A stretch of 64,000 nt of DNA from a virus, in the IMG/VR virus record IMGVR_UViG_3300023174_000074, positions 1-64,000 of that record, one strand, 5' to 3'. Position numbers and translations under genes: made by a program. This document shows, in pieces, positions 11,342-31,809 of this stretch (position 1 is its first letter; the number at the start of each line of letters is the position of its first letter). The notes below the pieces were generated by a model. It saw nothing but the letters and a program-made list of their open reading frames with translations, made no database searches and had not been told where the DNA came from.

Positions 11342-12409
11342 ATGAGTTACGAAAAAAATTACTGGCTAAATGAAGACAGTAGAACATTTTTATCCAGAGG
11401 ATATATTACTGAATCACCAGAACAACGGATTAAAGATGTAGCAAACACCGCAGAAAAGTATCTAAAAATTGAAGGGTTTGCAAAAAAGTTTGAAGACTAT
11501 ATGACTAGAGGATTCTATAGTTTATCAACTCCTGTTTGGATTAACTTCGGTAAAGACAAAGGACTTCCTGTTAGTTGTTACGGTAGTAATGTTGATGATA
11601 CTTTAGATAGTATCTTAAATGGAAGCAGAGAAGTTGGAATGATGTCAAAATACGGAGGTGGAACTTCTGCATTTTTAGGAAACATCAGAGCAAGGGGTAC
11701 TGCAATTTCAACAGGTGGAAGTGCAGATGGGCCAGTTCACTATGCTAGATTATATGATACTACAGTTGATGTTTGTAAACAATCAGAGGCAAGAAGAGGA
11801 GCATGTGCAGTGTGGTTACCTGTTGAGCATAATGACATTTTAGAATTCTTAGATATTGGAACAGAAGGTAATCCCATTCAGAATTTACAATATGGGGTTA
11901 CTGTTACCGATAAATGGTTAGATGAAATGAAGGGTGGAGACTCAGATAAAAGAAAAATATGGGCTAAAATAATACAAAGACGTAGTGAATTTGGATTTCC
12001 GTATATCATGTTTAAGGACTCGTCAAATAGTAATTCACCATACAAAGAATTAGGACTTGAAATTACTGCAAGTAATTTATGTGTTGCTCCTTGGACTGAA
12101 GTAGATGTTAAAGTAGATGGAATTAAAAAAACAATGCCAATAATCATGTTAGATTGTTTATTTCAATATAACATGTATAAAACACTTGAAGTTAAATCAT
12201 TCAATACTAAAACATCTGAGGCTGAATATAAAAGAGTATTAGATAGTGCTATGACATCTAGCAAAGCTAAAGTTATGAAAATAACTGACGAGAATACTGG
12301 AAAGTCAATAACATGTACGCCTGATCATAAAGTGTATACAAGCAATAGAGGATATGTTATGGCTAAAGATTTAAAGGAAGATGATGAATTAGTTATAAAA
12401 AGTTCCTAA
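11342..12409 (+). CDS. nrdA: class I RNR large subunit N-fragment (no ATP cone) plus split intein N-half (12080-12409)
   Basis: STP..N, SC, GGG, RRGA, GFPY, SNL|CVAP; intein block B CTPDHKVYT. Confidence 0.92.
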   Translation: MSYEKNYWLNEDSRTFLSRGYITESPEQRIKDVANTAEKYLKIEGFAKKFEDYMTRGFYSLSTPVWINFGKDKGLPVSCYGSNVDDTLDSILNGSREVGMMSKYGGGTSAFLGNIRARGTAISTGGSADGPVHYARLYDTTVDVCKQSEARRGACAVWLPVEHNDILEFLDIGTEGNPIQNLQYGVTVTDKWLDEMKGGDSDKRKIWAKIIQRRSEFGFPYIMFKDSSNSNSPYKELGLEITASNLCVAPWTEVDVKVDGIKKTMPIIMLDCLFQYNMYKTLEVKSFNTKTSEAEYKRVLDSAMTSSKAKVMKITDENTGKSITCTPDHKVYTSNRGYVMAKDLKEDDELVIKSS

Positions 12410-12478
12410 AGTTTTATGTTCTGAGATAAAGTTACTAAATTATTTAGATATATAATTAAATAAAAATAACTTTATCTT

Positions 12479-13426
12479 ATGGACTATGAAAAAATATATA
12501 AGAATTTATGTACTTTGTGCCAAACAAAAAATATTAAAGAACGAATATCCAATAGAAATTTGAACGATAAACGCTTAAATGAAGATTACATCTATACTGA
12601 AAAACACCATATTATACCAAGACATGCCGGAGGAAATGATAATGTTCTAAATTTGGCTGAAATGCTACCGGAGGAACATTATATGGCACATTTATTAAGA
12701 TATAAAGCGTATAATGATAGAAATGATTTTTTAGCTATTAGATTTATGGTTAATGGCTATATTAATAAAAAAATATTAGCGGATAAGATCGATCTAAAAT
12801 TAAAAAATAAATTAGCTGCATCATTCAAACAAAATATTGCAATGTTTAGGAAAAACAATTCATGGCATAGCACTGAAGGTATTAAAAATATATCAGAAGC
12901 AAGAAAGGGTACTATGGTAGTTAAAGATAGTATAGAAAATAAAATCATAGGTTCAGTAGATATAAATCACCCTAATATCATATCAGGAAAATGGGTACAT
13001 CATACTAAAGGAAAAATATCGGTAATTTGTAAAAAAACAGGAATTAAAAAAAATATAACAGCTAAGGAATATGAAGATAATAAAGATAATTATGCCTACA
13101 ATGGAGGAAAGGTTAATGGTAAAAATAATCCAAGATTTAGCGGATTTTCCGACGAAGATTTAATTAAAATAGTGTCTGATTTTTCAATTAAAATGGATAT
13201 AGGATTTTTACTTCCATACCGTACTGTAGCAAATCATTATAGAAAATATGAAAAATATGAAAAACTACCAAAATCATTTAGTTCATTTAGATTCAATGGA
13301 TTGGGCGTTGTAGAATTACATAGACTAGCATCAGAAAAAACAGGATTAGAACTTAATATCTATTACTATAATGATCCAAAAATTAAAAACAAAATTAAAA
13401 ACAAAATTAAAAACATATTATGTTAA
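12479..13426 (+). CDS. MobE-like HNH homing endonuclease
   Basis: MDYEKIY...EKHHIIPRHAGGND...NL...EEHYMAHLL. Confidence 0.88.
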   Translation: MDYEKIYKNLCTLCQTKNIKERISNRNLNDKRLNEDYIYTEKHHIIPRHAGGNDNVLNLAEMLPEEHYMAHLLRYKAYNDRNDFLAIRFMVNGYINKKILADKIDLKLKNKLAASFKQNIAMFRKNNSWHSTEGIKNISEARKGTMVVKDSIENKIIGSVDINHPNIISGKWVHHTKGKISVICKKTGIKKNITAKEYEDNKDNYAYNGGKVNGKNNPRFSGFSDEDLIKIVSDFSIKMDIGFLLPYRTVANHYRKYEKYEKLPKSFSSFRFNGLGVVELHRLASEKTGLELNIYYYNDPKIKNKIKNKIKNILC

Positions 13427-14406
13427 AAATAGAATATTTAGAAGAAGAAATACCAGTATACGATATTACTGTTGAAGATAATCATAACTTTTATGCTGAT
13501 GATATTTTAGTGCATAACTGTTCAGAAATTCAATTACCTACGGATTCATTCAATTCCTTTGTGTGCTGTTTAGGTTCTATTAATCTACTGCACTGGGATG
13601 AAATTAAGGAAACCGATGCAATTGAAATTTATACGATGTTCTTAAATGCAGTTATGGACGAATTCATAAACAAGTCATTTAATATGCCCGGGATGAAAAG
13701 AGCATGGAGATTTGCAAATGATCATAGAGCGTTAGGACTTGGAGTACTAGGATATCATTCATTGTTTCAATCTAAACTAATCTCATTCGATTCTCTTAGA
13801 GCAAAGCAGTTAAACCACGAAATATTTTCAATATTAAAAGAAAAAAGTGAAGCGGCTTCAAGATTATTGCATGATGAGAAAGGTTACAAATCAATCAGAC
13901 CCGGATATGCTAATACAACGCTTATCGCAATTGCTCCAACAAAGAGTAGTTCATTCATTCTAGGACAGGTAAGTATGGGAATTGAACCGATTAAATCTAA
14001 TTATTTTATTAAGGATTTGGCGAAATCAAAAACAATTTATAAAAATCCTTTTTTAATCCAAGAGTTAGATAAGTATGACTTAAATACTCCGGAAGTCTGG
14101 GAGAGTATTTTAAAGAGAGATGGATCAGTTCAACATTTGGACTTTCCAACAAAGGGAGTTTTTAAATCATTTATTGAAATTTCTCCAAAGGAGATAATTT
14201 TACAGGCTGCTCAAAGACAAAAGCATATCGATCAGTCACAGTCTCTTAACCTAATGATACACCCTTCAGTGTCAGCAAAAGATATTAATCAATTATATCT
14301 CTATGCGCATGAGGAGGGGATTAAAACACTATATTACCAATTTAGTCAAAGCTCTGCCCAATCTTTTGCTAGGAATATATTGGAATGCTCTAGCTGTGAG
14401 GCTTAA
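13420..14406 (+). CDS. nrdA: split intein C-half (13420-13518) plus RNR large subunit C-fragment
   Basis: VYDITV...NF...LVHN|CSEI; CCLGSINL, RALGLG, APT..SS, DQSQSLN, KTLYY, C-terminal CxxC. Confidence 0.92.
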   Translation: MLKIEYLEEEIPVYDITVEDNHNFYADDILVHNCSEIQLPTDSFNSFVCCLGSINLLHWDEIKETDAIEIYTMFLNAVMDEFINKSFNMPGMKRAWRFANDHRALGLGVLGYHSLFQSKLISFDSLRAKQLNHEIFSILKEKSEAASRLLHDEKGYKSIRPGYANTTLIAIAPTKSSSFILGQVSMGIEPIKSNYFIKDLAKSKTIYKNPFLIQELDKYDLNTPEVWESILKRDGSVQHLDFPTKGVFKSFIEISPKEIILQAAQRQKHIDQSQSLNLMIHPSVSAKDINQLYLYAHEEGIKTLYYQFSQSSAQSFARNILECSSCEA

Positions 14407-14420
14407 AAAATATTACAGAA

Positions 14421-15047: not shown

Positions 15048-15057
15048 AATTTAGATC

Positions 15058-15708: not shown

Positions 15709-15735
15709 ATCTATAATAATTAAAATATACAACCA

Positions 15736-17001: not shown

Positions 17002-17028
17002 GATATATATAGAAAAAATATTAAATTA

Positions 17029-17565: not shown

Positions 17566-17590
17566 TTACTTTATCGCTTTAAATATATTA

Positions 17591-17623
17591 AACCCCAGTA
17601 TTTTTCAAATATTGGGGTTTTTT
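17591..17623 (+). terminator. intrinsic terminator
   Basis: AACCCCAGTATTT...AAATATTGGGGTT plus T run. Confidence 0.8.
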
Positions 17624-17689
17624 GTTGAAACTTTGACCGATCCGGTCATATAACTTTGGCCGGATTAGCCGGACTTAATTATATAAAAT

Positions 17690-19420
17690 ATGAGTAAAGT
17701 TAATAAAACCATTGAAGTCCTTACAGATTTTGAACACATTATAAAAAGACCAACAATCTATGTTGGTAGTGTAAAAAGAAGCGAGGAGACACTTCCTATA
17801 ATTGAAGCAGGAATCATTAAAAGTGTCTTAAAAGAGCATTCAGTTGGAATGTATAAGTTGTTTGATGAAGTGTTTTCTAACTCAGTAGACGAAGCAAAAA
17901 GGATGTCTACGGCAATGAAGAAAATAATCGTCGATGTTGATATAAAGGAGAACTCAGTTTCTATTACAGATACTGGTGACGGATTTACCAACGGATCAGC
18001 AATAAACAAAAAGAGCGGGCTTAGCAATATCGAGACCGCTGTTTCAATGCTTAGAGCAGGATCAAATTTCGATAATGACTCAATTACGGAAACCCTTGTA
18101 GGAACTAATGGTATGGGTGTTAGCTTGGTTAATGCCTTATCTAATGTGTTTGAGATAGAAACTGCTAACTCGAAAGAGGTTTATTTGCAGACCTGGAAAA
18201 CTTTTAAGGCATCAGCTGCTAAGGTTACTTCAAAGGCAAAAAATAGACAAACAGGAACCCGTGTAACATTTACCCCCAACAACCAAGTTTTTGATAATTC
18301 CAAATGGGATTATCAGACAATAAAATCATATCTTTGTTTAAAGAAAAGAGTACTTGAGACCGAAGCTAAAACCGCAAACCTCAAGATAGATTTCACCTGG
18401 AACGGTAAAGCTGAAAACATAACAAGTTTACTTTCCCCTGATTGGACAGCAAAAACCCCTATTGGGGAAATTCTGATTTGGGAGAAGACCACAGAATCAG
18501 GATCATTCTCTTTTGTCAACAGTGCATTATGTACGGGTATCCATCAGAAGATAATCCTAGATAGAATCAATGGGCAACTGGAGGATTCTTTAGGTCACCA
18601 CTTCTATGACACTTTGATTATTCTAAATCTTTCTCCTGGTATAGTTCGATTCGGTGACCAGAATAAGACAAAGTTCGTTTCAAAGAGAGAAGAAGTGGAA
18701 CCAACAATTGCAAAACATTTTGATCCAATTTTAGGAAGATTCTTCAAGAGCGAAGTTTATAAGAACATCAAGAAGGCAGTTGATGCTAGAAAGAAAGAAA
18801 CAGAGTTAAAGAAGATTAGAAGGGATAAGAAATCAATTAGAATAAAACAATCGAATAAGTATTTTCCTTCAGCATCCTCCAGGCCAGAAACATTATTTAT
18901 TGTAGAAGGATTATGTATAGATGAAAATGAAAAAATAAATATATGGAGGGAAGGAAATCTTATAGAGACGACATTAAGAGATGTTATAATAGGCGATGAG
19001 GTGGTAACGCATGCTAATAGAATTAGAAAAATAGTAAATAAGCAGAGAAAATTAAAGGAATGTGTTTCTATTAAATTATCCGACGGTACTGTTATAAAAC
19101 AGCCTAAGACTCATCAATATTACACGTATAATAAAATCACAAAAGACTTCTCATTTAAAAGGATTGATCAAATTGACATTTCTCACGATTGCTTGGTTAA
19201 ATCCAATCTCGGCAGCTTTATAGGAACACTAGAGGTTGTTGATTTTGCTAAGTCAGGGGATGAAAAATATCCTAATATTATATTTCTAGAGGATAATTCT
19301 TGGTATCAATTCAGCGATACCCATAAATATTGTGTTTATGATATAAAAAGCTCTGGGTTTACTATGGAATTAGGTAAGGATATTTCAATTGGCAATCTTA
19401 TATGTGTTTTCGATTTTTAA
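17690..19420 (+). CDS. type IIA topoisomerase ATPase subunit (GyrB/gp39-like) N-fragment plus split intein N-half (18914-19420)
   Basis: EHIIKRPTIYVG, EVFSNSVDE, DTGDG, GTNGMG GHKL motifs; TOPRIM LFIVEGL|CIDE. Confidence 0.9.
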   Translation: MSKVNKTIEVLTDFEHIIKRPTIYVGSVKRSEETLPIIEAGIIKSVLKEHSVGMYKLFDEVFSNSVDEAKRMSTAMKKIIVDVDIKENSVSITDTGDGFTNGSAINKKSGLSNIETAVSMLRAGSNFDNDSITETLVGTNGMGVSLVNALSNVFEIETANSKEVYLQTWKTFKASAAKVTSKAKNRQTGTRVTFTPNNQVFDNSKWDYQTIKSYLCLKKRVLETEAKTANLKIDFTWNGKAENITSLLSPDWTAKTPIGEILIWEKTTESGSFSFVNSALCTGIHQKIILDRINGQLEDSLGHHFYDTLIILNLSPGIVRFGDQNKTKFVSKREEVEPTIAKHFDPILGRFFKSEVYKNIKKAVDARKKETELKKIRRDKKSIRIKQSNKYFPSASSRPETLFIVEGLCIDENEKINIWREGNLIETTLRDVIIGDEVVTHANRIRKIVNKQRKLKECVSIKLSDGTVIKQPKTHQYYTYNKITKDFSFKRIDQIDISHDCLVKSNLGSFIGTLEVVDFAKSGDEKYPNIIFLEDNSWYQFSDTHKYCVYDIKSSGFTMELGKDISIGNLICVFDF

Positions 19421-19455
19421 GATCGAGGGAGATATATAAAATAAAGCCTTCGACT

Positions 19456-20850
19456 ATGAAAAAAATAAAATATGAAGTTAAAATAGGTCAATTTATTACA
19501 GATTTTAAAATTTCCGATCTTAATGATTCGTACAATGATCAAAAGATTCTTAGATACATGAAAGCATCTCTAATGAAAAGCGGGATTAATTATAATGATT
19601 TAATTAAAGAAAATCTAAATATTGACGTTGGAAAATGCCCGTTCTGTGGATCCGATAGTAAATATGAGATTTCATATTTAATAGATAGGCCTAAAAAAGT
19701 ACTAGATATACTCGGTATAGAGTACATAGTAAAAGGTGGAATGATAAATTATCATTGTAAGAGCGGGAAAAATAATTGTTCAGGCAGCCGTCTAAATTCA
19801 AATTCTATAGAATATATTTCTAATGCTTTTAAGATAAGCAAAGAAAAAGCTAGAGCATATATTATTGACCGTAATAAATCCCCCTTTTATGCGAAAAATC
19901 ACGATAGCAAGGAAGATTACAAGAAATTTCAAACCCGAAATTTGGATTGGTATATCTCTAAATATGGAGATTATGAGGGTAGATCAAGATATCAGAATTT
20001 TAAGGATAAAGTATCCAACGGGAATACAAAGGAATCTATAATAGCAAACCACGGAATAGATTCTTATAATGATATGATTAGAAGAAAGAAGGTTTGTACA
20101 ATTGAGCATTTTATTTCTAAATATGGCGAAGAATTAGGAAAATCTAAATTTGATGAATACAAGAAGTCTTTAGGGCTAACAAGAGATAATTATATAAAAA
20201 AATTTGGAAAGGATTCTTGGGATAAAAGAGCAGAAATCATAAAATATAAGAAATCTCTAGAATTCTATATTCAGAAGCTTGGAGAAGAAGAGGGGCGTAA
20301 AGATTTCAGAACTTTAAGGGAATCCTATAGCTTTAATAAGGAGAAGTATATTGAGAAGTACGGAGAAGAAAAATGGATAGAAAGATATAAGAATTTTAAT
20401 CTAAATTTTTATAGTAAAGAGGCATCGGTTTTCCTTAATAAGCTATTGGGTATGCTTATAGATCTAGAATTGCCGTTGAACAATATTAAGATGGAAAAGG
20501 ATGAGTTTTTTCTATGGGATACCGAATACAGAAGGATTTATTTTTATGATTTGTATTTCGAATGCTTTTCTAAAAAGATAATTGTTGAATATGATAATGA
20601 GTTTTGGCATCCAAAAAACGAAAATGATACCAGTGCTTGGGATAAACTTAAAATTGATCATAAATTTACAAAATCAGAAAAGATAGAGTATGACGAAAGA
20701 AAGAGAATGTTTGCTAAGTATAAGGGATATGATATAATAAATATTTCATACTCAGGACAAAAAAACCCACTAAGAAAAAATAACGAGGAACTTTGGGAGC
20801 CCTTATTGATAGAAGTTTTAAACAAAATAAAAAATATTATAAGATGTTAA
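19456..20850 (+). CDS. Vsr-like homing endonuclease with KYG repeats
   Basis: Repeated I.KYG helices; YSKE..F, FYDLY...IIVEYDNEFWH; likely ATG 19456. Confidence 0.8.
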   Translation: MKKIKYEVKIGQFITDFKISDLNDSYNDQKILRYMKASLMKSGINYNDLIKENLNIDVGKCPFCGSDSKYEISYLIDRPKKVLDILGIEYIVKGGMINYHCKSGKNNCSGSRLNSNSIEYISNAFKISKEKARAYIIDRNKSPFYAKNHDSKEDYKKFQTRNLDWYISKYGDYEGRSRYQNFKDKVSNGNTKESIIANHGIDSYNDMIRRKKVCTIEHFISKYGEELGKSKFDEYKKSLGLTRDNYIKKFGKDSWDKRAEIIKYKKSLEFYIQKLGEEEGRKDFRTLRESYSFNKEKYIEKYGEEKWIERYKNFNLNFYSKEASVFLNKLLGMLIDLELPLNNIKMEKDEFFLWDTEYRRIYFYDLYFECFSKKIIVEYDNEFWHPKNENDTSAWDKLKIDHKFTKSEKIEYDERKRMFAKYKGYDIINISYSGQKNPLRKNNEELWEPLLIEVLNKIKNIIRC

Positions 20851-21551
20851 CAATAGAACAAGAGAATTTTTTCCAGATTGTAGAAATTGAAAGTATATCC
20901 GAATCATTAGAAGTTTTAAATTGCATAGATTTAACAGTAGAGGATGACGAAAGCTTTGTTATCGGAAATGGCATTATTTCACATAATTCAGCTATGGGGT
21001 CTATACTACAGAAAAGAGATCCTAAGAAAGAAGCAGTCTATGCTCTAAAAGGAAAGATCAAGAATGCAAGGAGTTTATCAGATCTTTCAGACAACAGGGA
21101 GATATTAGAATTAATGCAGATCCTAAATCTAGATCCGGAGGGGCAAAATATACAATGTCCATTTGAGAGAGTCGTTATAGCTACCGATCAGGATCCTGAC
21201 GGAGCTCACATTACATCACTATTAATAAACCTATTTTATCTTTGGTTTCCCTGGATGATTAAGCAAGGTAGAATCCAATTCTTAGAAACACCATTGGTTA
21301 CCGTTGGGGATAAGGCTAAGAAATATTTTTATTCACTAGAGGAGTTTAAAAAAGGTACGGGAAGATCAGATAAAGGTAATGTCAGATACCTTAAGGGATT
21401 GGGATCTCTATCGTTGGAAGACTGGGATCATGTTATGAAGAATAAAAAAATAACAGTTCTAGTTGAGGACAAGAAAACTAAGTATCATTTAGATATGGCT
21501 TTTGGTAAGTCCTCAATGGAAAGAAAAAAGTGGTTAAGCTCAGTTGTTTAA
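20844..21551 (+). CDS. split intein C-half (20844-20987) plus topoisomerase II TOPRIM fragment (gp60-like)
   Basis: DLTVEDDESF...ISHN|SAMG; LKGKIKN, TDQDPDGAHI, YLKGLGS. Confidence 0.9.
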   Translation: MLTIEQENFFQIVEIESISESLEVLNCIDLTVEDDESFVIGNGIISHNSAMGSILQKRDPKKEAVYALKGKIKNARSLSDLSDNREILELMQILNLDPEGQNIQCPFERVVIATDQDPDGAHITSLLINLFYLWFPWMIKQGRIQFLETPLVTVGDKAKKYFYSLEEFKKGTGRSDKGNVRYLKGLGSLSLEDWDHVMKNKKITVLVEDKKTKYHLDMAFGKSSMERKKWLSSVV

Positions 21552-21586
21552 TTTTTAATCCCGAGGGATTTTATTATATTTACCGA

Positions 21587-22507
21587 ATGGAAAGAAGATA
21601 TGGTTATTGTTGTATAAATTTAAGTTTAGCTAAGGACAAAATCTCTACAAATAGAGGTATGGTCAAAAGGACATTTGAAGAAAAAGGTCTTCCTTATGCT
21701 TCCGAACTTGCACTAAAGAATGTTCAAGATCTCAAGAAAATCTTAGAGTGGAATAACGCTAACGACATTAGGATGTTCAGAATGTCAAGTGATATATTTC
21801 CCTGGTGTTCTGAATATGAAATAAGTGATCTTCACGATTACCAGGAGATCTCTCAAATTTTAAAGTCATGCGGGGATTATGCAAAGGAAACTAATCAGAG
21901 GATAACATTCCATCCATCTCCATATGGGGTTTTAGCATCAGAGAATCCTTCAGTTGTAAAAAAAGCACTAAAGGAGCTTAATCAGCATGGCGAGATATTC
22001 GATATTATGGGATTAGATAGAAATCACTTTTATCCTATAAACATACACGTAAACACTACAAAGCCAACCAAAGAAGCTGCTGCTATCAGATTCTGCGAAA
22101 ACTTCGAAATGTTATCGGAATCAACAAAATCTAGATTAGTCGTTGAGGTTGATGACAAGAAATCACAATATAATGCAGTTGATCTTTACCGTATGGTTTA
22201 CTCCAATATTAATATTCCAGTTACCTTCGACTACCTTCATAATAAATGTAATCCCTCACACTTAGACGAGAAACAAGCTCTTGCACTTTGTTTATCAACT
22301 TGGACAAAAGGAATCCCCGCTATTACACACTACTCGGATTCTAAAAAACTTTATGAGGATGAAACATCTAAGGAAGTTGCACACACTGACTGGATATGGG
22401 GTAATGTTGAAACTTATGGACTTGATTTCTCTATAGAATTTGAGGTAAAAATGAAGGATTTGGCTTTACTCAAATACATAAAAGAAAATAAAAAAATATT
22501 ATCATAA
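21587..22507 (+). CDS. uvsE: UV damage endonuclease
   Basis: GYCCIN, FRMSSDIFP, RITFHP, NIH, FDYLH, HYS, AHTD, EVKMKD. Confidence 0.9.
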   Translation: MERRYGYCCINLSLAKDKISTNRGMVKRTFEEKGLPYASELALKNVQDLKKILEWNNANDIRMFRMSSDIFPWCSEYEISDLHDYQEISQILKSCGDYAKETNQRITFHPSPYGVLASENPSVVKKALKELNQHGEIFDIMGLDRNHFYPINIHVNTTKPTKEAAAIRFCENFEMLSESTKSRLVVEVDDKKSQYNAVDLYRMVYSNINIPVTFDYLHNKCNPSHLDEKQALALCLSTWTKGIPAITHYSDSKKLYEDETSKEVAHTDWIWGNVETYGLDFSIEFEVKMKDLALLKYIKENKKILS

Positions 22508-22746: not shown

Positions 22747-22749
22747 GAT

Positions 22750-23091: not shown

Positions 23092-23095
23092 TAAG

Positions 23096-24139
23096 ATGAA
23101 AGATTACTATCAAATACTAGGAGTTACCAAGGGGGCTTCGCTAGAAGAAATAAAAAAGGCCTACCGAAAGTTGGCTATAAAATATCATCCGGATAAAACT
23201 GGAAATGACCCAGCAGCGGAGGAAAAATTCAAAGAAGTCTCCGAAGCTTATGCTACACTATCAGACCCAAATAAAAAGAGCAAGTACGATAACCCCAATA
23301 CATTTGGTGGGATGGGTGGGGGAAATCCATTTGAACAATTCTGGAATGGAACGAATCCTTTCCAAAGTGGTGACTTCTCTTCTTTCTTTAACGGGCAAGG
23401 CAGAAGAACACAGGAGCCAATGATAAACAAAGGGAGAAACATAAACACTATAGTGGCTTTAACACTAGAAGAAATGATGACTGGTACAAATAAGAAGATC
23501 AAGCTTAATAGAAGAATTCATTGTGATCCATGCAAAGGCACAGGAGCAGAGAATGCAGATGTTATAAATTGTTCTGCATGCGGGGGAATAGGTAGGGTTA
23601 ATAAAACTGTTCAGTACCAATTTGGTGAAATGGTTACACAAGAAACATGTAGAGCTTGTGGAGGTCATGGATCTAAACCTAAAAAATCTTGCAATGAATG
23701 CTCAGGCACTGGAACTATTAGAAAAGACGAAGAGGTTGACTTCAATATACCTAAAGGATCTATATCCGGTGTTTCGTACGTACTTGCTGCTAAGGGAGAT
23801 TGGGCTAAGGCTCCTTCCAACCCAGGGGATCTCGTTATAACAGTAGAAGAATATGCTCATCCTGTTTATCGCAGAGATGGTGTAAATTTAATAAATGAAA
23901 AATATATTTCATTTAAGGAAATTTGTCTAGGTACCGAAATAGAATTTCCAAACTTAACTGGATCTAGCTTTAGAATAAAAATACCACCAGGAACACAGCC
24001 AGGCAAAATATTTAGATTAAAAGGTAAGGGGTTACCAGAATTTAATGGATTTGGAGCTGGTGATATACTGGTCCAGGTAAATGTAAAAATACCAGAATTC
24101 CTTACCGAAGAACAAATGAAAGCAATCGAACATTTTTAA
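23096..24139 (+). CDS. dnaJ: DnaJ chaperone
   Basis: J domain with HPD, G/F region, four CxxCxGxG repeats, C-terminal domain. Confidence 0.95.
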
Positions 24140-24142
24140 ACT

Positions 24143-24460: not shown

Positions 24461-24469
24461 AAATCTATA

Positions 24470-24976
24470 ATGTCGACAAACTTAAACATATCAGACCAGA
24501 TAAATCAACAATACAGAACTTACGCATTGTATGTTTTGCAAAGTAGAGGTATACCAAATTTCTATGATGCTTTAACTCCTGTTCAAAGGTTAATCCTAGA
24601 AAATTCTCCAGGTAAATTCAACAAGACTATTGGCTTGGTCGGAGAGGTAATTAAAACAGGGCTATATCACCACGGGGATTGTTTTTTATATAACACAAAG
24701 ATAAACCTAGCAGACGGAACACAGGTTTCGATAGGAGATTGGGCGGAAAAATTTCCGGATATTAAATTATTCGTATATTGCGTAGACGAAAACGGAGAAA
24801 AAACAATATCTTTAGGGCATTCCCCAAGGGTGGGTCAGATTACTGATGAAATGTTTGAGATCGAACTTGAAAATGGGGAGATATTTAAGTGCACAAAAAA
24901 TCACCCGTTTCTAACTAATAGAGGATGGATTAAAGCTGAGGATTTATTAGGTTCGGATGAGATAGTAAGCATCTAA
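24470..24976 (+). CDS. topoisomerase II cleavage subunit (GyrA/gp52-like) N-fragment plus split intein N-half (24680-24976)
   Basis: YALYV..RGIP..DALTPVQR, YHHGD|CFLY; block B CTKNHPFLT. Confidence 0.9.
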   Translation: MSTNLNISDQINQQYRTYALYVLQSRGIPNFYDALTPVQRLILENSPGKFNKTIGLVGEVIKTGLYHHGDCFLYNTKINLADGTQVSIGDWAEKFPDIKLFVYCVDENGEKTISLGHSPRVGQITDEMFEIELENGEIFKCTKNHPFLTNRGWIKAEDLLGSDEIVSI

Positions 24977-25013
24977 TAAATTTTTATCATCACGGGATAT
25001 ATAAAAATAAACC

Positions 25014-25916
25014 GTGATGATAAAGAAATGCTTATATTGTTCTAATAGATTTAAACAAAAAACTAGTTTTGTGAAATACTGTTCACCTAAATGCAAGTCT
25101 AGAGATAGATTTATAAAAATCCAATATGGAGAAAAATTTTTTAATATCTGGAAAGAAAATGCAATAAAATATCCAGATTTTTATAGTACGATAAAAAGAC
25201 CAAAGGATAGATTTAAAAATAAATGTCTAATGTGCGAAAAAGAATTTATCGAATTTAGAAAGTGCTGTAGTAGTGAATGTTCCCTGAAATTAAAAAAACA
25301 GACAACATTTAATTCTACTGGATCTGAGCATAATTTTGCAAAAAATTCAACATCAAGAACAGAGATGGATGATAATCTATTTAAAAATTTCGGAATAGTA
25401 AATATCTTTCAGAGGGAGGATGTAAAGTTGAAATTAAAAAATACGTGGATAGAAAATCACGGGGTTTCAAATCCTACCATTAATGCAAGCATTAGAAATA
25501 AGGTAAGAAAAACTAATGAAAATTCGGGGCGTTGGTTAAAAGCACACGAAAAAGATGAATTTGAGCTATATTGTTATCACGTAAAACAATTTACTAATTG
25601 GAATATGAATAGATTTGCATTAAAACTATGGGGGAATGAATTTTATAAGAATTGGGGATTTTATGAAAATCATCTAGATCATATATTTTCCAAAAAAGAA
25701 GGGTTTATGCAAAAAATCCCTGCTAATATAATAGGTAGCTTTGTAAATCTTAGAATGCTTCCACGTAAGGAAAATTTATCAAAGGGTATAAAATGTGATA
25801 TTACTAGCGAAGATTTATATAATCGTTATTTATTATTTGAAGAAGAGAATCCCGAAATATTAAGAGAAATAGAAACTATATTTAAAGAATCATTAAAATA
25901 TGTCAATAAAAATTAA
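25014..25916 (+). CDS. homing endonuclease (Cys clusters plus C-terminal HNH-like domain)
   Basis: CxxC/CSxxC motifs; HLDHIFS...NLRML...NLSKG; lies between intein halves. Confidence 0.75.
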   Translation: MMIKKCLYCSNRFKQKTSFVKYCSPKCKSRDRFIKIQYGEKFFNIWKENAIKYPDFYSTIKRPKDRFKNKCLMCEKEFIEFRKCCSSECSLKLKKQTTFNSTGSEHNFAKNSTSRTEMDDNLFKNFGIVNIFQREDVKLKLKNTWIENHGVSNPTINASIRNKVRKTNENSGRWLKAHEKDEFELYCYHVKQFTNWNMNRFALKLWGNEFYKNWGFYENHLDHIFSKKEGFMQKIPANIIGSFVNLRMLPRKENLSKGIKCDITSEDLYNRYLLFEEENPEILREIETIFKESLKYVNKN

Positions 25917-27219
25917 ATCAATAAAAAAAATTATCCTGGATTCTCCAAAGCCTTTTTATGATATAACGGTAGAAAAATATGCAAATTTTTCTATTGGTAA
26001 ATCTGGTATAGTAGTTCACAATTCATCTCTGTCCGGTGCTATATCAAAATTAGCTAGGCCTTTTGGCTGTGCTTTTAGCGTTCTTGAAGGTGATGGATTT
26101 TTTGGTTCACCCGTTAATCCAAGTCCATCTGCTCCCAGATACACGTCGGTTAAGATCAATAGCAGGATCAAAGATTTTTTATTCAAAAACTATGATCTTA
26201 ATGACAAGAACGAAGAGGGTGGACACGATTGGCTTCATGTTGAAGTTCCTATTGGATTACTAACTCACGTTGTTGGTATTGCAGTAGGGTACAGAAGTAA
26301 CATACTTCCTAGAAAATTAGAGGATATCATAGAGTATCTAAACGGATCTCCAAAATTGCTTAAGCCCTATTTTAAAGATTTCTCTGGTAAGATATCAAAA
26401 TTTAGAAATGAGGATAATACGTGGTTATTCGAAAGCGGATTTGATGTTGATGCTAAGAAAAAAACAATACACATCTATGATTTACCACCAGTAATGAGAT
26501 ATGATAGCTTTATTAATAAGCTAGATTCTAAATTAGAAAACTCTGGATGCGAATACAGAATAGAAAACAGATCACAAAGTAAGTGCGATCTGATAGTCTC
26601 ATTAAGAGGAATGGATAATGCAAGGTTTACCGAAATTGTTGAAATCATATCAAGACTATGTAAGATTATAGTTACCGAGGATGTTATATTTATTCGTGAC
26701 GGTGGAGTTATGGAATTCACTTCTGTCAAAGAGTACTTAGATCATTTCAAGGGTCATCTTGAATTGGTTAAATTAAAAAGGTTATTGAAGGATCTTAGCG
26801 ACTATTCTAAAGAGCTACAGTTTTTAGAAGCAAAACTAAAGTTTCTTAATTTCATGATATCTAAAAAAAGAACAAACGATGAGATCATAGCATTTCTCGG
26901 AGAATTTGAAAATTGGATATCACAGAGATTGCAGAGGATTGAAATAATAAGGCTAAGCTCTGACCACATTAAACAAACCGAGATTGATATCAAAGGGTTA
27001 AAAGAAAAAATAACCGAAGCTAAAAAGCTTGTAAAGGATCAGGAAAAAATACACAAAGAAGCGGCTAAGAAAATACAGGCATTGGGTAAAATTAGGTCAT
27101 TCAAACCCATGATAAATCTATTCGAAACAAATCAAATAGAAGGTATAGAGGTTTATCAGGTACCTGATGAAGAGGATACTGTAATTTCGGATGAAAATTT
27201 AGAAGAAAACGAAATTTAA
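25900..27219 (+). CDS. split intein C-half (25900-26022) plus topoisomerase II cleavage subunit C-fragment
   Basis: FYDITV...NF...VVHN|SSL; GDGFFGS, SAPRYT catalytic Tyr, GIAVGY; no GyrA beta-pinwheel. Confidence 0.9.
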   Translation: MSIKIKSIKKIILDSPKPFYDITVEKYANFSIGKSGIVVHNSSLSGAISKLARPFGCAFSVLEGDGFFGSPVNPSPSAPRYTSVKINSRIKDFLFKNYDLNDKNEEGGHDWLHVEVPIGLLTHVVGIAVGYRSNILPRKLEDIIEYLNGSPKLLKPYFKDFSGKISKFRNEDNTWLFESGFDVDAKKKTIHIYDLPPVMRYDSFINKLDSKLENSGCEYRIENRSQSKCDLIVSLRGMDNARFTEIVEIISRLCKIIVTEDVIFIRDGGVMEFTSVKEYLDHFKGHLELVKLKRLLKDLSDYSKELQFLEAKLKFLNFMISKKRTNDEIIAFLGEFENWISQRLQRIEIIRLSSDHIKQTEIDIKGLKEKITEAKKLVKDQEKIHKEAAKKIQALGKIRSFKPMINLFETNQIEGIEVYQVPDEEDTVISDENLEENEI

Positions 27220-27256
27220 TTGCAAAATCAATCTAGAACTATTAAATAATAAGAAA

Positions 27257-28018: not shown

Positions 28019-28031
28019 TAATTAATAATTA

Positions 28032-28964
28032 ATGAGCACAAGCAACATTTCATTTGTAACAGTATCTGATGACAGATATGGTCGTAAGGATGGTAAATAC
28101 TCATCAACTCAGGATTTTATTCTAGAAACTCTTAGAGGTAATTCCCATATGGGATTTTCTAATTTTTTCTTTTGGAAATTTAATGATATACTATCGACAG
28201 ATTTCTATAAGGATAATAAAAAGATGCTAGATAATTATGATCCTGCTATGAACGGTAGATGCTATAAGCCATTCACTATTCTAGAAGCTTTAAAGTCAAT
28301 AGGGGATGGAGATTTTTTAATATATAATGACGTTTCACCCGAGCATTGGACAAATCTATCATTCGATTCTTCGGTGTTTAGTCTTGACGTTATAAAAGAA
28401 CTGTGCAACTCAAACGGTGGTATACTTAGTACTGAAAGTGTTTGGATAGTTAATAACGAAGTTGCTCCACATACCCACGAGAACTTTACCACAGAGGCCT
28501 GTATGAATAGAATGGATATGCAAAAGTATCGCCATTCCATACAGCATGCTTCGGGTATGATAGTCTTTCAAAAATCCAAGAAAACCCTAGATTTTGTAAC
28601 AGAGTGGTTAAAATGGAATCTTATAGATGAGTGTGCTAGTTTATCATCATTGGACGAACCCATAAGGGATTTTTACGGAGTTGATGTTGGAAACTGCGGT
28701 AAGGTTGGGCACAGACACGATCAATCTATCTCCGGATTGCTTATAAATGATCTCAACGGGAAAATAGTTAAAAATCCAGGGGGATTTAATTTTCTGAATT
28801 TCTGCAGAAGAAATTTTGGATATGATTTCATTGAAACTAATCAGGGACCAAGTGATTATATTTACTGGAATACATTCGACGGAAGCAATTGGGTTTATCT
28901 AAAATCGCCAAGAAATCATGAAAATATAGCTAGGGTAACAAGTGATCCAACAAATTTAAGATAA
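28032..28964 (+). CDS. putative glycosyltransferase (GT-A-like)
   Basis: KPFTILEAL, LIYND, W..W, HRHDQSI motif. Confidence 0.7.
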   Translation: MSTSNISFVTVSDDRYGRKDGKYSSTQDFILETLRGNSHMGFSNFFFWKFNDILSTDFYKDNKKMLDNYDPAMNGRCYKPFTILEALKSIGDGDFLIYNDVSPEHWTNLSFDSSVFSLDVIKELCNSNGGILSTESVWIVNNEVAPHTHENFTTEACMNRMDMQKYRHSIQHASGMIVFQKSKKTLDFVTEWLKWNLIDECASLSSLDEPIRDFYGVDVGNCGKVGHRHDQSISGLLINDLNGKIVKNPGGFNFLNFCRRNFGYDFIETNQGPSDYIYWNTFDGSNWVYLKSPRNHENIARVTSDPTNLR

Positions 28965-29672
28965 ATGAATCAGGAAGAAATTAATGAAATAGAAGAAAGA
29001 ATAGAAAAACTCACTTCTCTAAAGAACGAGTTAAAGAACGAGGAACAGGCTGTAAAATTAACAATGAACTCGATATATGGGGCCATCGGAAACAATTGGT
29101 TTGTTTGTTTTAATCCTGACGTTGCCGAAGCTGTTACCTTACAGGGACAGGACCTGATTAAATATTCAGAAAAAGCGCTACATAAATACTTCCATGAGTA
29201 TTGGCATGTTGACAAGGAGCTTCATGAAAAGCTAGAATTAACTACAGTTAAAAGAGTTTCCAAACCTCTCGTAATCTATGGGGACACGGATTCAGTTTTT
29301 TCCGAGAGTATTCTTACGATACAGAATGGTTTGGGTGAGGAAAGAAAAATCCCGATTGGCTATTTATTTAACGAATTGAAAATAACTGAAGATGCATATT
29401 GTGACAATAGAGGTAATGAAATAATAGAACCAGATAATTTGGCATCTCTAAATTATATTAATGAATATCTAACATTTTCACCAATCAAAAAAATAATAAG
29501 ACATAAAGTCAGAAAAGCAAAATGGAAACTTGTTACTGAAACTGGTAAGGAAGTGATAGTAACTAATGACCATTCTCTTACTGTATTTAGAGACGGGATT
29601 AAGATCCACATAAAGGCAAGCGAAATTAATATTGATACCGATCTAGTTTTAGAGGTTTCTGTCGATATATAA
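28965..29672 (+). CDS. DNA polymerase B middle fragment (motifs B and C) plus split intein N-half (29292-29672)
   Basis: QAVKLTMNSIYG, VTLQGQ, YGDTD|SVF; block B VTNDHSL. Confidence 0.92.
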   Translation: MNQEEINEIEERIEKLTSLKNELKNEEQAVKLTMNSIYGAIGNNWFVCFNPDVAEAVTLQGQDLIKYSEKALHKYFHEYWHVDKELHEKLELTTVKRVSKPLVIYGDTDSVFSESILTIQNGLGEERKIPIGYLFNELKITEDAYCDNRGNEIIEPDNLASLNYINEYLTFSPIKKIIRHKVRKAKWKLVTETGKEVIVTNDHSLTVFRDGIKIHIKASEINIDTDLVLEVSVDI

Positions 29673-29689
29673 TACAAATTATATAATAT

Positions 29690-30847
29690 ATGGAGACAGC
29701 AATAATAAAAATGTTAATTACAAAATACAGAAGGGATAAAACAATAGAATCATGGAAGGTCCTCGAAAACCTAATAGAAGATAAATCATACTGTAGAGAT
29801 TGCAACGGATCTATATTCTATCCAAATTCATTAATTCGTTTAGGTAAAGACGGAAATGTAAAATATGAAACTAATAATCCCTGTTCAAGATCATTTAAGA
29901 ATGTAGGTGGTAATAAATATTATTTATCTGTATGTTCATTTTGTCTGGATAAAAAATTTGATGAATATTCGGGTATGAATAAATCTAGAGTATTCAATGT
30001 TATGAACAGAATAACCAGATATGCATATAATATTCCTGATGATGTTGCTAATGAATTTACTAAAACTACCGCAGTGACATTGGAAAATTTGGTGAAAAAA
30101 TATGGTGAAAATGACGGTAAACTTAGATGGGAAAAATATAGAAATTTACAGGCTGTTACTAATACATTCGAATATAAGAAAGAAAAATACGGATGGAACA
30201 AATCAGACTTTGATGAATTTAACCAATCTAGAGCTATAACAGAAAAGAACCTTGTAAATAGACATGGTGAGGAGAAAGGTAAAGAAATATTTAGCGAATA
30301 TTGTAAAAAACAAACAACTAACGGTAAGACACTGGAATGGTTCATAATGAAACATGGATATGCTGACGGTCTGGCTATTTTTGATAAGATGCTTAATGCT
30401 AAACTAAAGGGTATGGAAGGAATTGGTGCATATTCTAATATGTCCCAGGATTTTTTTGATTCATTAGATGCAGAATTCGGTAATATTTTTAAAACAATAT
30501 ATTATAGAAAAAACGGAGAAGAAAAGAGAATAGTGATAAATGTTGATGGTAAATATAAATTATATTACCTAGATTATTTTATACCTGAGCTGAATATAGC
30601 TGTAGAATTTTTTGGTAATTATTATCATGCAAATCCACAAAAGTATAAAGATCCAGAAGCTGTTATTAAATTTTCTAGACTTTATAATGTTGGCGAAATT
30701 TGGGAAAGAGATAGATTAAGAATAGAAAATTTAGAAAAACATCACGGAATAAGAACTATAGTTGTATGGGAATCAGATTACTATAAAAATAAAAATAATG
30801 ATAAATTTTATAAGAATATTGTTAAATTATGTATAGAGAAGAAATAA
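29690..30847 (+). CDS. Vsr-like homing endonuclease with KYG repeats
   Basis: KKYG/RHG repeats; YS..SQ.FF, YLDYF...AVEFFGNYYH, D..R, VVWESD. Confidence 0.85.
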   Translation: METAIIKMLITKYRRDKTIESWKVLENLIEDKSYCRDCNGSIFYPNSLIRLGKDGNVKYETNNPCSRSFKNVGGNKYYLSVCSFCLDKKFDEYSGMNKSRVFNVMNRITRYAYNIPDDVANEFTKTTAVTLENLVKKYGENDGKLRWEKYRNLQAVTNTFEYKKEKYGWNKSDFDEFNQSRAITEKNLVNRHGEEKGKEIFSEYCKKQTTNGKTLEWFIMKHGYADGLAIFDKMLNAKLKGMEGIGAYSNMSQDFFDSLDAEFGNIFKTIYYRKNGEEKRIVINVDGKYKLYYLDYFIPELNIAVEFFGNYYHANPQKYKDPEAVIKFSRLYNVGEIWERDRLRIENLEKHHGIRTIVVWESDYYKNKNNDKFYKNIVKLCIEKK

Positions 30848-31809
30848 AAGCAACAACCAGATTTTCAAAAATAGTATCATGCGAACAAATTGGTGAATTT
30901 GAGGACGAGTATGTATATGATCTCGAAATAGACGAGGAGGGTTATGATAATCAAACTTTTTTTGCTAATGACATATTGGTGCATAATTCTAATTATGTGA
31001 CCTTTCAAGAGGTAGTAGATTCTTGTGATTGGAAAGGTGATCCTAAAGATCTTATCCTACAGATAAACGAACATAGGCTAGCAGAATATCTTAAGACATG
31101 TTTTGAAAAGTATTCTAAAAAATGGGGTACTCAAAACTACCAGGATTTTGAGATGGAGAACTTGGCTATAAATGGTATATTCTTAGGAAAGAAGAAGTAT
31201 GTTACTAATCTGGTTTATGCAGACGGCCTACATATGGAGCCGCTCTCACAAATGAAAACAGTAGGGGTGGAAATGATTAAAGGTGGAACCCCACCTTTCG
31301 TAAGAGATAAATTGATCTACCTGACAAAATTCATTTTCTCTAAAGGACGTAGTTTTGATATCAGAGAGTTTGTGAAGGAGCTTAAGGAGATTAAAAGGGA
31401 TTTTAAAATACAGGAACCTAGGAACATCTCTGCTGCAATAGCAATTAATAACTATGAAAAGTATATCCTCAATGACGTAACGGAATTAGAAGTCACAAAG
31501 GGGTGTCCTATTCAAGTTAGAGCAGCAGCTTACCATAACTATTTGCTGAATAGATCCAAATACAAAGACAAATACCCGTTAATTAGAAGTGGAGAAAAAA
31601 TCAACTATTATTTCGTTAAGACTAAGTCCATTATGGACAACAACGTTTTTGCATATTCCCAAGGAACATATCCTTATGAATATGCACCACCTATCGACCA
31701 CGATATGCAGTTTACAAAGACCATATTAGATCCAATCAATCGATTTATTGAGGTTATGGGATATAATAGTATAAGTCCAAATTTATTCCTAATAAACGCT
31801 CTATTTTAA
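30829..31809 (+). CDS. split intein C-half (30829-30987) plus DNA polymerase B C-terminal fragment
   Basis: YVYDLEI...FFANDILVHN|SNY; KKKY, GVE..K..TP, GCPIQVRAA, SGEKI. Confidence 0.92.
   Translation: MYREEIKATTRFSKIVSCEQIGEFEDEYVYDLEIDEEGYDNQTFFANDILVHNSNYVTFQEVVDSCDWKGDPKDLILQINEHRLAEYLKTCFEKYSKKWGTQNYQDFEMENLAINGIFLGKKKYVTNLVYADGLHMEPLSQMKTVGVEMIKGGTPPFVRDKLIYLTKFIFSKGRSFDIREFVKELKEIKRDFKIQEPRNISAAIAINNYEKYILNDVTELEVTKGCPIQVRAAAYHNYLLNRSKYKDKYPLIRSGEKINYYFVKTKSIMDNNVFAYSQGTYPYEYAPPIDHDMQFTKTILDPINRFIEVMGYNSISPNLFLINALF

Follow-up and report, generated by a model that had tools for sequence, protein, structure and literature searches.

The stretch analysed here, referred to as the window, is the first 64 kb of the 126,808-bp IMG/VR record IMGVR_UViG_3300023174_000074, a viral record that CheckV rates as 46% complete. 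Within it, the genes for the class I ribonucleotide reductase alpha subunit (NrdA), a GyrB-like and a GyrA-like subunit of topoisomerase II, and family B DNA polymerase (PolB) are each broken by a split intein, the two halves of which (IntN and IntC, for the N- and C-terminal half, respectively) are separated by a free-standing endonuclease gene. A first-pass annotation had proposed four split inteins bracketing endonucleases in this manner, and translation together with boundary mapping recovered all four at the positions claimed. Host proteins were assigned with Pfam (Ribonuc_red_lgN/lgC for NrdA; HATPase_c, Toprim and TOPRIM_C for GyrB; DNA_topoisoIV for GyrA; and DNA_pol_B for PolB). Nearly all long open reading frames (ORFs) of the window lie on the + strand, and its G+C content is 27-39%. 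The features of the four loci, with the host portions flanking each intein referred to as exteins, are as follows.

8095-9492, + strand: PolB N-terminal piece, 465 aa, covering the exonuclease region and the beginning of the polymerase domain; PF00136 16-143; phrog_2062, E 3e-71
11342-12079, + strand: NrdA N-extein, 246 aa, C-terminal motif ...ASNL; Ribonuc_red_lgN and lgC matches
12080-12409, + strand: NrdA IntN and stop, 109 aa (coding to 12406), Cys1, block B TPDH; Intein_splicing 22-94, E 3.9e-6
12410-12478, + strand: nuclease 1 leader, a hairpin whose A/T-rich loop is promoter-like and whose 3′ arm ends at the start codon
12479-13426, + strand: nuclease 1, free-standing gene for a homing endonuclease, apparently of the HNH type, 315 aa; matches phrog_655 ("homing endonuclease") at E 1.3e-22
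13420-13518, + strand: NrdA IntC, 33 aa, ends HN; Intein_splicing 125-155, E 1.8e-6
13519-14406, + strand: NrdA C-extein, 295 aa, +1 Cys of CSEIQ; Ribonuc_red_lgC, E 1e-51
17690-18913, + strand: GyrB-like (topoisomerase II large subunit) N-extein, 408 aa, ends ...VEGL; HATPase_c
18914-19420, + strand: GyrB IntN and stop, 168 aa (coding to 19417), Cys1, unusually long; block B probably SDTH near its end
19421-19455, + strand: nuclease 2 leader hairpin, loop motif GATATATAA
19456-20850, + strand: nuclease 2, free-standing Vsr-like homing endonuclease gene, 464 aa; phrog_22677
20844-20987, + strand: GyrB IntC, 48 aa, ends HN; Intein_splicing 118-155, E 2e-3 (2.4e-5 in the six-frame search)
20988-21551, + strand: GyrB-like C-extein, 187 aa, starts SAMGS, +1 Ser; Toprim and TOPRIM_C
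24470-24679, + strand: GyrA-like (topoisomerase II subunit) N-extein, 70 aa, ends ...YHHGD; DNA_topoisoIV 1-62
24680-24976, + strand: GyrA IntN and stop, 98 aa (coding to 24973), Cys1, block B TKNH; Intein_splicing 3-93, E 9.1e-6
24977-25016, + strand: nuclease 3 leader hairpin, 15-bp stem, start codon within the 3′ arm
25017-25916, + strand: nuclease 3, free-standing endonuclease gene, probably HNH, 299 aa; two Cys4 clusters, then DH...N...N
25900-26022, + strand: GyrA IntC, 41 aa, ends HN, net charge +4; Intein_splicing 122-155
26023-27219, + strand: GyrA-like C-extein, 398 aa, starts SSLSG, +1 Ser; DNA_topoisoIV, E 2.4e-30
28965-29291, + strand: PolB middle extein, 109 aa, spanning motif B through YGDTD; PF00136 147-235
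29292-29672, + strand: PolB IntN and stop, 126 aa (coding to 29669), Ser1, block B TNDH; Intein_splicing 13-89, E 1.4e-6
29668-30838, + strand: nuclease cassette of 1,171 bp, delimited against the contiguous mini-intein allele of locus L113
29690-30847, + strand: nuclease 4, free-standing Vsr-like homing endonuclease gene, 385 aa
30829-30987, + strand: PolB IntC, 53 aa, ends HN; Intein_splicing 119-155, E 5e-5
30988-31809, + strand: PolB C-extein, 273 aa, starts SNYVT, +1 Ser

The splice junctions agree with those first proposed, namely SNL/C (NrdA), EGL/SA (GyrB), HHGD/SS (GyrA) and YGDTD/S (PolB), where the slash marks the point of insertion, and each C-half ends in HN followed by Cys or Ser. 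On either side of each of the four junctions, all 15 of the 15 residues compared are the same in the window and in intein-free relatives, so that excision of the predicted intein and nuclease restores a normal protein without loss or gain. The GyrB site is, we assume, the Toprim EGDSA motif, and the Synechocystis GyrB intein presumably occupies the equivalent Toprim EGx/SA position. We take the +1 Ser of the GyrA site to be Ser83 of E. coli GyrA, and HHGD/SS to be a different site from that of the mycobacterial GyrA intein, beside the active-site Tyr. As originally read, the C-halves are 33-53 aa long, their starts overlap the 3′ ends of the nuclease genes, and two of them share the junction ATGTTAA; the overlaps measure 7, 7, 17 and 19 nt, and the shared junction is that of NrdA and GyrB. 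Overlaps of 7-19 nt suggest that translation of each C-half is coupled to that of the nuclease. The description of polB as split by an intein at YGDTD/S is correct as far as it goes, but PolB is divided further, into three pieces: a separate gene 19.5 kb upstream of the remainder encodes the N-terminal 465 aa, and there is no intein at that break, which falls between PF00136 positions 143 and 147. This intein-less first split looks ancestral to the phage group. In all relatives examined, the PolB middle piece begins at its residue 1-17.

The Pfam family Intein_splicing matches seven of the eight halves (~3-94 for N-halves and ~118-155 for C-halves; E 1.4e-6 to 2e-3), and a six-frame search of the whole 126,808-bp record returned the same seven half-intein matches and no others. 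A scan for the motif HN[CST] near ORF starts recovered the four C-halves and one unrelated ORF on the minus strand. The catalytic set is kept in all eight halves, i.e., Cys or Ser at position 1, T/SxxH in block B, HN, and a Cys or Ser at +1. In an alignment of the NrdA, GyrA and PolB N-halves, the T and H of block B are invariant, and the catalytic residues also persist in relatives whose identity falls as low as roughly 25-60%. The PolB intein has Ser1 and Ser+1, yet one non-catalytic Cys lies in each half. Beyond this shared core the elements are diverse, since the four inteins align mutually over 20-46 residues only, within the motif blocks. The NrdA IntN is akin to NrdA inteins of Yersinia, Klebsiella and Campylobacter phages, at 36-44% identity.

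The weakest-supported of the four N-halves is that of GyrB, in which some 60-70 additional residues appear to separate block A from block B. A homologue in another relative (L110) is 54% identical, and the GyrB IntN is precisely missing from the empty alleles of relatives and lake contigs described below. Its nearest named ESM Atlas clusters are dominated by HINT families, which is a lead only. A placement of block B by eye, at His67 or in the THANR stretch, is unsupported by hhalign, which picks the C-terminal SDTH instead.

Intein halves are better conserved than the nucleases that they flank. For instance, five relatives (L001-L004 and L023) have the NrdA intein at 82% (IntN) and 91-94% (IntC) identity to the window, with a homologue of nuclease 1 in the same position at 68-69%; at the PolB locus of L111, the corresponding values are 79% (IntN), 98% (IntC) and 74% (nuclease). 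Because the catalytic residues are intact, the insertions lie inside catalytic motifs, and the halves are more conserved than the nucleases, the enzymes are most likely completed by protein trans-splicing. An alternative, which we consider unlikely, is that the halves remain unspliced and the intein-derived tails serve as non-covalent docking domains. Non-covalent assembly is documented in Aeromonas phage Aeh1, where mobE interrupts nrdA and no intein is involved (Crona et al. 2011, PMC3045599). The full catalytic set is nevertheless kept in all four window inteins and in relatives at ~25-60% identity, the breaks fall inside catalytic motifs, where 150-220 extra residues would occupy the active site, and in every element the best-conserved part is the IntC, all of which favors trans-splicing over docking.

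Vsr-like nucleases had been mentioned as part of the known arrangement. The nucleases of the window are Vsr-like only at the GyrB and PolB loci; that of the NrdA locus is apparently of the HNH type, and that of the GyrA locus is probably HNH. For nuclease 4 (PolB), a model built from a nine-sequence alignment (pLDDT 80.9) superposes residues 244-385 on E. coli Vsr (1cw0, Z 12.0; 1vsr, Z 10.9, rmsd 2.6 over 112 aligned residues) and on the catalytic domain of I-Bth0305I (3r3p, Z 9.6, 96/97 residues); Foldseek alone gave an E of only 0.05-0.5 for Vsr and I-Bth0305I entries. Residues D295, E306 and H313 are invariant in the nine sequences and are candidate counterparts of the catalytic residues of Vsr, which are given as Asp51/His69/Asp97 (Dassa et al. 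2009, PMC2677866). The N-terminal 240 residues are mostly helical and include a Cys cluster. Nuclease 2 (GyrB) is homologous to nuclease 4 (blastp E 5e-6) and has the same three invariant D...E...H alignment columns; its start most likely lies at 19456, after the hairpin, and not at 19402.

Nuclease 1 (NrdA) contains an HH...N...H stretch that aligns weakly with the HNH motif of McrA (phmmer against PDB chains, E 0.22). Nuclease 3 (GyrA) is probably an HNH nuclease, judging from a model (pLDDT 80.8) whose matches to HNH-domain folds are weak (Z 3.9 and 3.7; Foldseek probability <=0.51). Across 15 sequences, its invariant residues are C5/C8/C22/C26, C70/C73/C83/C84/C88 and D221/H222/N244/N253; its Pfam match, DUF7487, is below the cut-off, and pairwise blastp revealed no significant similarity to nucleases 2 and 4. 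Searches at the sequence level added little. A phmmer search of the four nucleases against PDB chains returned nothing meaningful (CP47, a Fab and weak HNH rows), a nine-sequence nuclease profile against PDB returned only lumazine synthase (E 1.4), and neither matched nuclease 4 to I-Bth0305I. NCBIfam has no family for any of the four; in Pfam, nucleases 1 and 4 went without a match, and the rows for nucleases 2 and 3 were all sub-threshold or spurious. A helical repeat was suspected in nucleases 2-4, and the regular expression written for it matched nothing.

One further nuclease bears on how these genes are built. The 462-kb, unannotated GenBank record LR756500.1, from a huge phage, has a nuclease gene between its GyrB halves (6635-7651, minus strand, in locus L125) whose N-terminal part resembles nuclease 2 (35% identity, E 5e-28), and the C-terminal part of the same product resembles nuclease 3 (28%, E 4e-10). 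Because its two ends match different window nucleases, it suggests, at the level of sequence comparison, that DNA-binding and catalytic modules have been shuffled among these nucleases.

A leader hairpin precedes each nuclease start or encloses it. The predicted stabilities are -21 kcal/mol for nuclease 1 (z -3.95, with 0/200 shuffles folding as well) and -27.2 kcal/mol for nuclease 3 (z -8.53, 0/200); for nucleases 2 and 4 the values are z -3.68 (1/200) and z -2.93 (2/200), obtained from tighter folding windows after the first, wider ones proved non-significant (z -0.36 and -0.92). In the PolB hairpin, the 5′ arm consists of intein coding sequence, which is present in the cassette-free allele, and the beginning of the nuclease ORF forms the 3′ arm. 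The sequence GATATATAA, a putative promoter-like motif, is common to all four leaders, where it lies in the loops. It occurs 14 times on the + strand of the record, including before a GIY-YIG gene that splits thyA and before a Vsr-like gene at 69,977. This latter gene (69977-70774), beyond the window, has GATATATAA upstream, overlaps the next ORF, and encodes a protein similar to nuclease 4 (blastp E 4e-12); an HNH gene lies farther on, at 98989-100050. Neither of the two is flanked by intein halves.

The distribution of these elements was followed in related phage loci and in metagenome contigs. Loci were classified by tblastn with pieces of the window, except that L117 and L118 were placed by hand-read matches, their extein ends not having been placed by the classification script. 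The closest complete relative of the window phage is a 348,582-bp record (the source of locus L082; CheckV 100%), from which it follows that the window derives from a large freshwater phage of roughly the 350-kb class. The window stretch is present in lake and other freshwater metagenome runs from 11 studies, dated 2013-2023. For the PolB locus, the nearest cultured relative is the 225-kb Tenacibaculum phage PTm1, which has a Bacteroidota host.

Intein-free alleles predominate among the relatives. At the NrdA site, the 80 best loci comprise 54 that are empty, 17 with a different, contiguous intein, five with the same split intein and nuclease, and four with the site off the locus. The 17 contiguous inteins are of a different lineage and form single ORFs, 13 of 375-376 aa with LAGLIDADG-like motifs and four of 239 aa. 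Two of these loci (L044 and L055, 1802-2872) have a second contiguous intein of ~357 aa at NrdA residue 78/79, in addition to the 239-aa intein at the thiyl site. The counts for the other three sites share one set of 29 loci. The GyrB site is empty in 13, in all of which the GyrB-like N- and C-exteins are contiguous, and off the locus in 16. The GyrA site is empty in 24, holds the split intein with a nuclease 3 homologue in two (L094 and L106) and a nuclease-deleted split intein in one (L084), and is off the locus in two. For PolB, the middle and C-exteins are contiguous in 26/29 relatives, which are empty at the site; two have the split intein with a nuclease, and one has the site off the locus. 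In four relatives with exteins 86-98% identical (L081-L083 and L105), the GyrA and GyrB elements are missing, as is the PolB element in three, and the complete 348,582-bp relative (exteins 95-98% identical) has zero intein matches.

Farther away, each of four partial records yields 6-7 half-intein matches, so that several split inteins per genome are usual in this phage group and not peculiar to the window. Among these (records G002-G005, loci L126-L132), further fractured hosts, assigned from translations only, include a DExH-like helicase broken just before CHQ, a UvsX-like recombinase and a class II-like reductase, and NrdA is cut by two split inteins into three genes.

Split forms that have lost the nuclease were found for GyrB (L110, an additional locus located with IntN alone), GyrA (L084) and PolB (L123). 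In the first two, the spacers of 100-125 nt are open in the nuclease frame, and the peptides at their ends are homologous to the C-termini of nucleases 2 and 3, respectively; the spacer of L123 contains a fragment resembling the middle of nuclease 4. Because the spacers still read as remnants of nuclease ORFs, we regard the nuclease-less forms, on the strength of their sequences, as decayed and not primitive. All three retain the segment that overlaps the C-half start, which fits the view that this segment carries translation signals of the C-half gene.

The best-documented series is that of PolB, for which an IntN search returned 13 loci. The intein is a single uninterrupted ORF in four (L113, L114, L117 and L120), is split with a spacer of 78-183 nt from IntN stop to IntC start in another four (L115, L116, L119 and L123), and is split with a homologue of nuclease 4 in the remaining five (L111, L112, L118, L121 and L122). 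L113 is 85-98% identical to the window in nucleotide sequence over neighbouring genes, and its IntC is 98% identical. In the junction alignment, the two match up to GTCGATA on the left and resume from AAGAAATA on the right, and identity in 60-nt bins is 95-100% for the left flank and 90-100% for the right flank. From the 1,171-bp insert come the final codon of IntN and its stop, the nuclease ORF with its leader, and the new ATG and three further codons with which IntC begins. L113 and the window are thus a clean filled-versus-empty pair for a nuclease cassette within an intein. The first ~120 nt of the PolB intein (29279-29400) are only 42-45% identical to L113, against 85-100% otherwise, and in lake run X3 the same patch is replaced by 105 other letters (joint 29293>29402). 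The stretch looks like a recombination patch in the N-half, so that recombination also takes place inside the intein.

Lake metagenomes contain a comparable range of alleles. Contigs show the presence of alleles and not their frequencies, and the contig depths in run X1 (46.6 for the GyrB cassette and ~95 for its neighbours) are accordingly not taken as population shares; joints with sides of <30 letters were disregarded, e.g., 24997>25816 in run X3. Run X1 covers all four loci in contigs that show 0 differences from the window. In run X5, from another study, contigs with 0-1 differences match portions of nuclease 4, the region of the NrdA IntC, and the GyrA IntN together with the stop and leader that follow it. 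An intein-free GyrB allele is represented by contigs from X5 and X7 (two studies, 2019 and 2013) that join 18909 to 20994 with ten other letters between, and a nuclease-deleted GyrB form by a contig from X3 (depth 73.9) that joins 19425 to 20798, from which 1,372 bp of nuclease 2 are gone but its final ~50 nt and the two intein halves remain. Among relatives and lake contigs there are empty sites, an allele in which the mini-intein is contiguous, and split forms that have lost the nuclease; the intein and nuclease elements are therefore real and mobile.

Some smaller features of these alleles may be mentioned here. Contigs of runs X1 and X5 leave the window at 18844, 70 nt before the GyrB intein site, and enter the same unrelated sequence, which represents either a third allele or a rearrangement. 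Filled and empty alleles (13519-13524 and 20988-20993 compared with L006 and L082) differ in the Ser codon family at the +1/+2 codons, TCA versus AGC/AGT, which leaves the protein unaltered; the difference may be target-site variation that affects nuclease cleavage. Identity per 30 nt showed no consistent dip in the exteins beside the sites that would mark a co-conversion tract.

The prevalence of intein-free alleles among relatives, together with the recovery of only 46% of the genome, could be taken to mean that the four genes are non-functional pseudogenes wrecked by selfish insertions, with the phage using host enzymes or other copies. We find this improbable. The exteins are open, free of frameshifts, and 84-98% identical to those of uninterrupted relatives; the 126.8 kb record has no second PolB match; both halves are intact in the nuclease-deleted forms; and the same architecture recurs in relatives with exteins diverged to 26-35%, which speaks for long-term maintenance. 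An assembly or sequencing artefact, whereby errors broke contiguous inteins with nested endonucleases or a chimeric contig was formed, is scarcely credible even for a metagenome assembly whose best-matching run, X1, is perhaps its source, because each nuclease is in its own ORF with its own start and leader, separated from IntN by a stop and spacer, six-frame matches crossing three junctions hold 1-3 stops each, contigs of X5 and X7, from other studies, match pieces of the loci with 0-1 differences, and the same stops and frames in independent assemblies at 40-82% identity (L001-L004, L023, L094, L106, L111, L112, cultured PTm1 and LR756500.1) exclude the stops as sequencing errors.

It is thus very likely that the window carries four independent fractured genes with trans-splicing halves, separated by mobile homing endonuclease cassettes, in a freshwater phage. 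Under this explanation, each enzyme would be translated as two polypeptides, with the N-half of a class 1 split intein at the end of the upstream product and the C-half at the start of the downstream product. The halves would associate, fold into a HINT domain and trans-splice, rebuilding the interrupted catalytic motif, as the intact catalytic residues imply. The nuclease gene would be expressed from its own hairpin-embedded, promoter-like leader, and its 3′ end is probably coupled in translation to the C-half gene. The endonuclease cassette would be a mobile unit in its own right that lands in the mini-intein loop, where nested endonuclease domains normally sit, and its arrival would turn a cis-splicing intein into a split one, a direction of change that we infer. 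Either the intein and nuclease as a unit, or the cassette alone, could then spread into susceptible alleles during co-infection. Later decay of the nuclease gene would leave adjacent split-intein genes with a short 3′ remnant. The matching flanks of the PolB filled and empty pair indicate that the cassettes may home into mini-intein DNA. A bolder proposal is that the cassettes in this way parasitise inteins and not the host genes, and that co-expression of four pairs (three to four in relatives) has selected a natural orthogonal set, a combination that we advance tentatively, as somewhat short of an even prospect. On that proposal, the phage population would amount to a living record of split-intein birth and decay, with every step preserved.

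Several observations weigh against the explanation as a whole or against parts of it. All Intein_splicing scores are below the curated cut-off of 35.8 bits, and the GyrB IntN is not recognised by Pfam either as a protein or in the six-frame search of the whole record. Block B of this N-half is probably the C-terminal SDTH, an assignment based on an hhalign match of its last 55 residues to the block-B region of other IntN families (E 3e-4, probability only 39%). Nuclease 3 has no convincing fold or family match in Pfam, NCBIfam, PDB or Foldseek searches (best Z 3.9). The T4-type late-promoter octamer TATAAATA described by Dassa et al. is absent from all four nuclease leaders; its seven matches in the window all lie outside them, and the mean expected by chance is 14. 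The comparison with L113 gives presence versus absence of the cassette, not gain versus loss. Run X1 may be the window's own source sample and thus perhaps is not independent. Finally, the record is 46% complete, so intact second copies of the genes may lie elsewhere in the genome.

Mutual orthogonality of the four pairs had been inferred from their presence in one genome, and it stays an inference from sequence. By the rule of thumb of Pinto et al. 2020, in which 15/16 divergent split inteins were orthogonal, cross-reaction among the four pairs is unlikely. Three of the C-halves are strongly acidic (net charges -8, -11 and -10) and that of GyrA is basic (+4), so that electrostatic capture alone cannot sort three of the four pairs. 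Moreover, the NrdA and PolB C-halves share 52% identity over 25 aligned positions (including NrdA IntC residues 13-33), a likeness that calls for caution on orthogonality. If the four pairs are indeed selective, partner choice would have to be encoded by something beyond bulk electrostatics, as three of them share charge polarity.

The window supplies four complete co-resident split-intein pairs, one with Ser nucleophiles only, together with close and distant homologues. These pairs are raw material for orthogonal protein-ligation toolkits and a natural test of split-intein partner specificity under a common charge polarity (in three of four). In addition, an empty site, a contiguous mini-intein, the 1,171-bp cassette and a nuclease-deleted split form exist side by side in near-identical phages, and this co-occurrence of all stages makes the nuclease-invasion model directly testable with defined substrates. 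Topoisomerase II subunits of large phages are regular targets of such elements, with a consequent risk in annotation, since genes of this kind are easily called as fragments.

Other genes of the window include a UvdE-type UV endonuclease (21530-22507, E 2.2e-46), a DnaJ-like chaperone called from translation only (23096-24139), and a RimK-like protein (32281-33741), the last being an ATP-grasp protein with a long C-terminal extension.

The layout of the four loci is that of the fractured genes described from metagenomes by Dassa et al. 2009 (PMC2677866), as had been recognised at the outset; two halves, a free-standing nuclease (a probable one at the GyrA locus), a hairpin and a 3′ overlap were observed at every one of them. 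That collection consists of gp41-1 to -8, NrdA-1 to -7, NrdJ-1/2, IMPDH-1, DnaE, ligase and terminase, and its authors proposed that a free-standing endonuclease invades a mini-intein to yield a split intein, a route still treated as a model in a 2025 preprint on actinobacteriophage inteins. The two sets share an NrdA insertion directly N-terminal to the thiyl-radical Cys, a phage origin, hairpins ahead of the nuclease starts, both charge polarities and, for two of the loci here, Vsr-like nucleases. The C-halves of the window (33-53 aa) fall within the earlier range of 33-54, as do the overlaps (7-19 nt, within 6-69), which were reported for 15 loci; TATAAATA was present in 10/16 of the earlier leaders. 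In contrast, topoisomerase II subunits and PolB are not among the hosts in the accessible text of that paper ("gyr" and "topoisomerase" have 0 occurrences), and its nucleases are GIY-YIG and Vsr-like only, with HNH mentioned there just for the intein-less nrdA of Aeh1, whereas the window has one apparent HNH and one probable HNH locus. The N-halves of 126 and 168 aa also exceed the earlier range of 88-105. Furthermore, the short read assemblies of Dassa et al. could not show co-residence in one genome or an allelic series.

For PolB, the closest precedent is phage PTm1/PTm5 (AP019524.1), annotated with an "intein-containing split DNA polymerase precursor" and a "VSR endonuclease". It has the same three-piece PolB, the YGDTD/S site, the same intein family (IntN 47% and IntC 60% identical) and a homologous Vsr-like nuclease between the halves (28%, E 2e-26). 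The exteins, in contrast, share only 25-30% identity, the distance to the PolB N-piece upstream is 2 kb there and 19.5 kb here, and PTm1/PTm5 is a cultured marine phage of a Bacteroidota host, as opposed to a lake phage. Natural split PolB inteins already characterised by the Mootz laboratory, and in use, are Aes123 PolB1, CP21 PolB1 and LCGC14 PolB2 (PMC11923092, PMC12707363), which likewise occur in large phages, use Ser nucleophiles and have N-halves of ~115-126 aa; unlike the cysteine-less Aes123 PolB1 type, the window intein has one Cys per half. Because tblastn with the PolB IntN matched 20 phage records, none of them from Aeromonas or Campylobacter phages, its lineage is distinct from that of Aes123 and CP21 PolB1 at the sensitivity of tblastn. 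Lak phages also match this IntN. With regard to the nuclease, the C-terminal domain of nuclease 4 resembles the catalytic domain of I-Bth0305I (PDB 3R3P; Taylor et al. 2011, PMC3239194) in fold, but the latter enzyme sits in a group I intron of recA.

Inteins of bacterial GyrA and GyrB, of which 50 and 33 contiguous examples were counted by Novikova et al. 2015 (PMC4760082), occupy the same host protein families. Unlike these cis-splicing inteins of cellular gyrases, the elements of the window are split, reside in a T4-type phage topoisomerase II, and are associated with free-standing nucleases. The suggestion that split inteins in both topoisomerase subunits are uncommon holds for the printed literature, as no published report of split inteins in phage topoisomerase II was found in open-access full texts (supplements excluded), but sequence data contradict it: relatives have one or the other subunit split, and in LR756500.1 adjacent GyrB-like and GyrA-like genes are fractured at the same two sites, with nucleases between the halves. 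The exteins of that phage are 26-35% identical to those of the window, whereas its GyrA IntN and IntC are 45% and 62% identical. Inteins more alike than their hosts are as expected for elements that move horizontally. Genes fragmented by endonucleases and Intein_splicing proteins have also been reported for gut jumbo phages (Sci Adv 2026), without, in the accessible text, the details seen here.

In sum, the fractured-gene layout, a three-piece PolB with a VSR endonuclease (PTm1) and the fracture of both topoisomerase subunits (LR756500.1) are already known. Relative to Dassa et al., the topoisomerase hosts and the HNH-type nucleases at two loci (one of them a probable assignment) are new, and to these the window adds a complete set of four pairs in one genome, along with an unusually complete allelic series.

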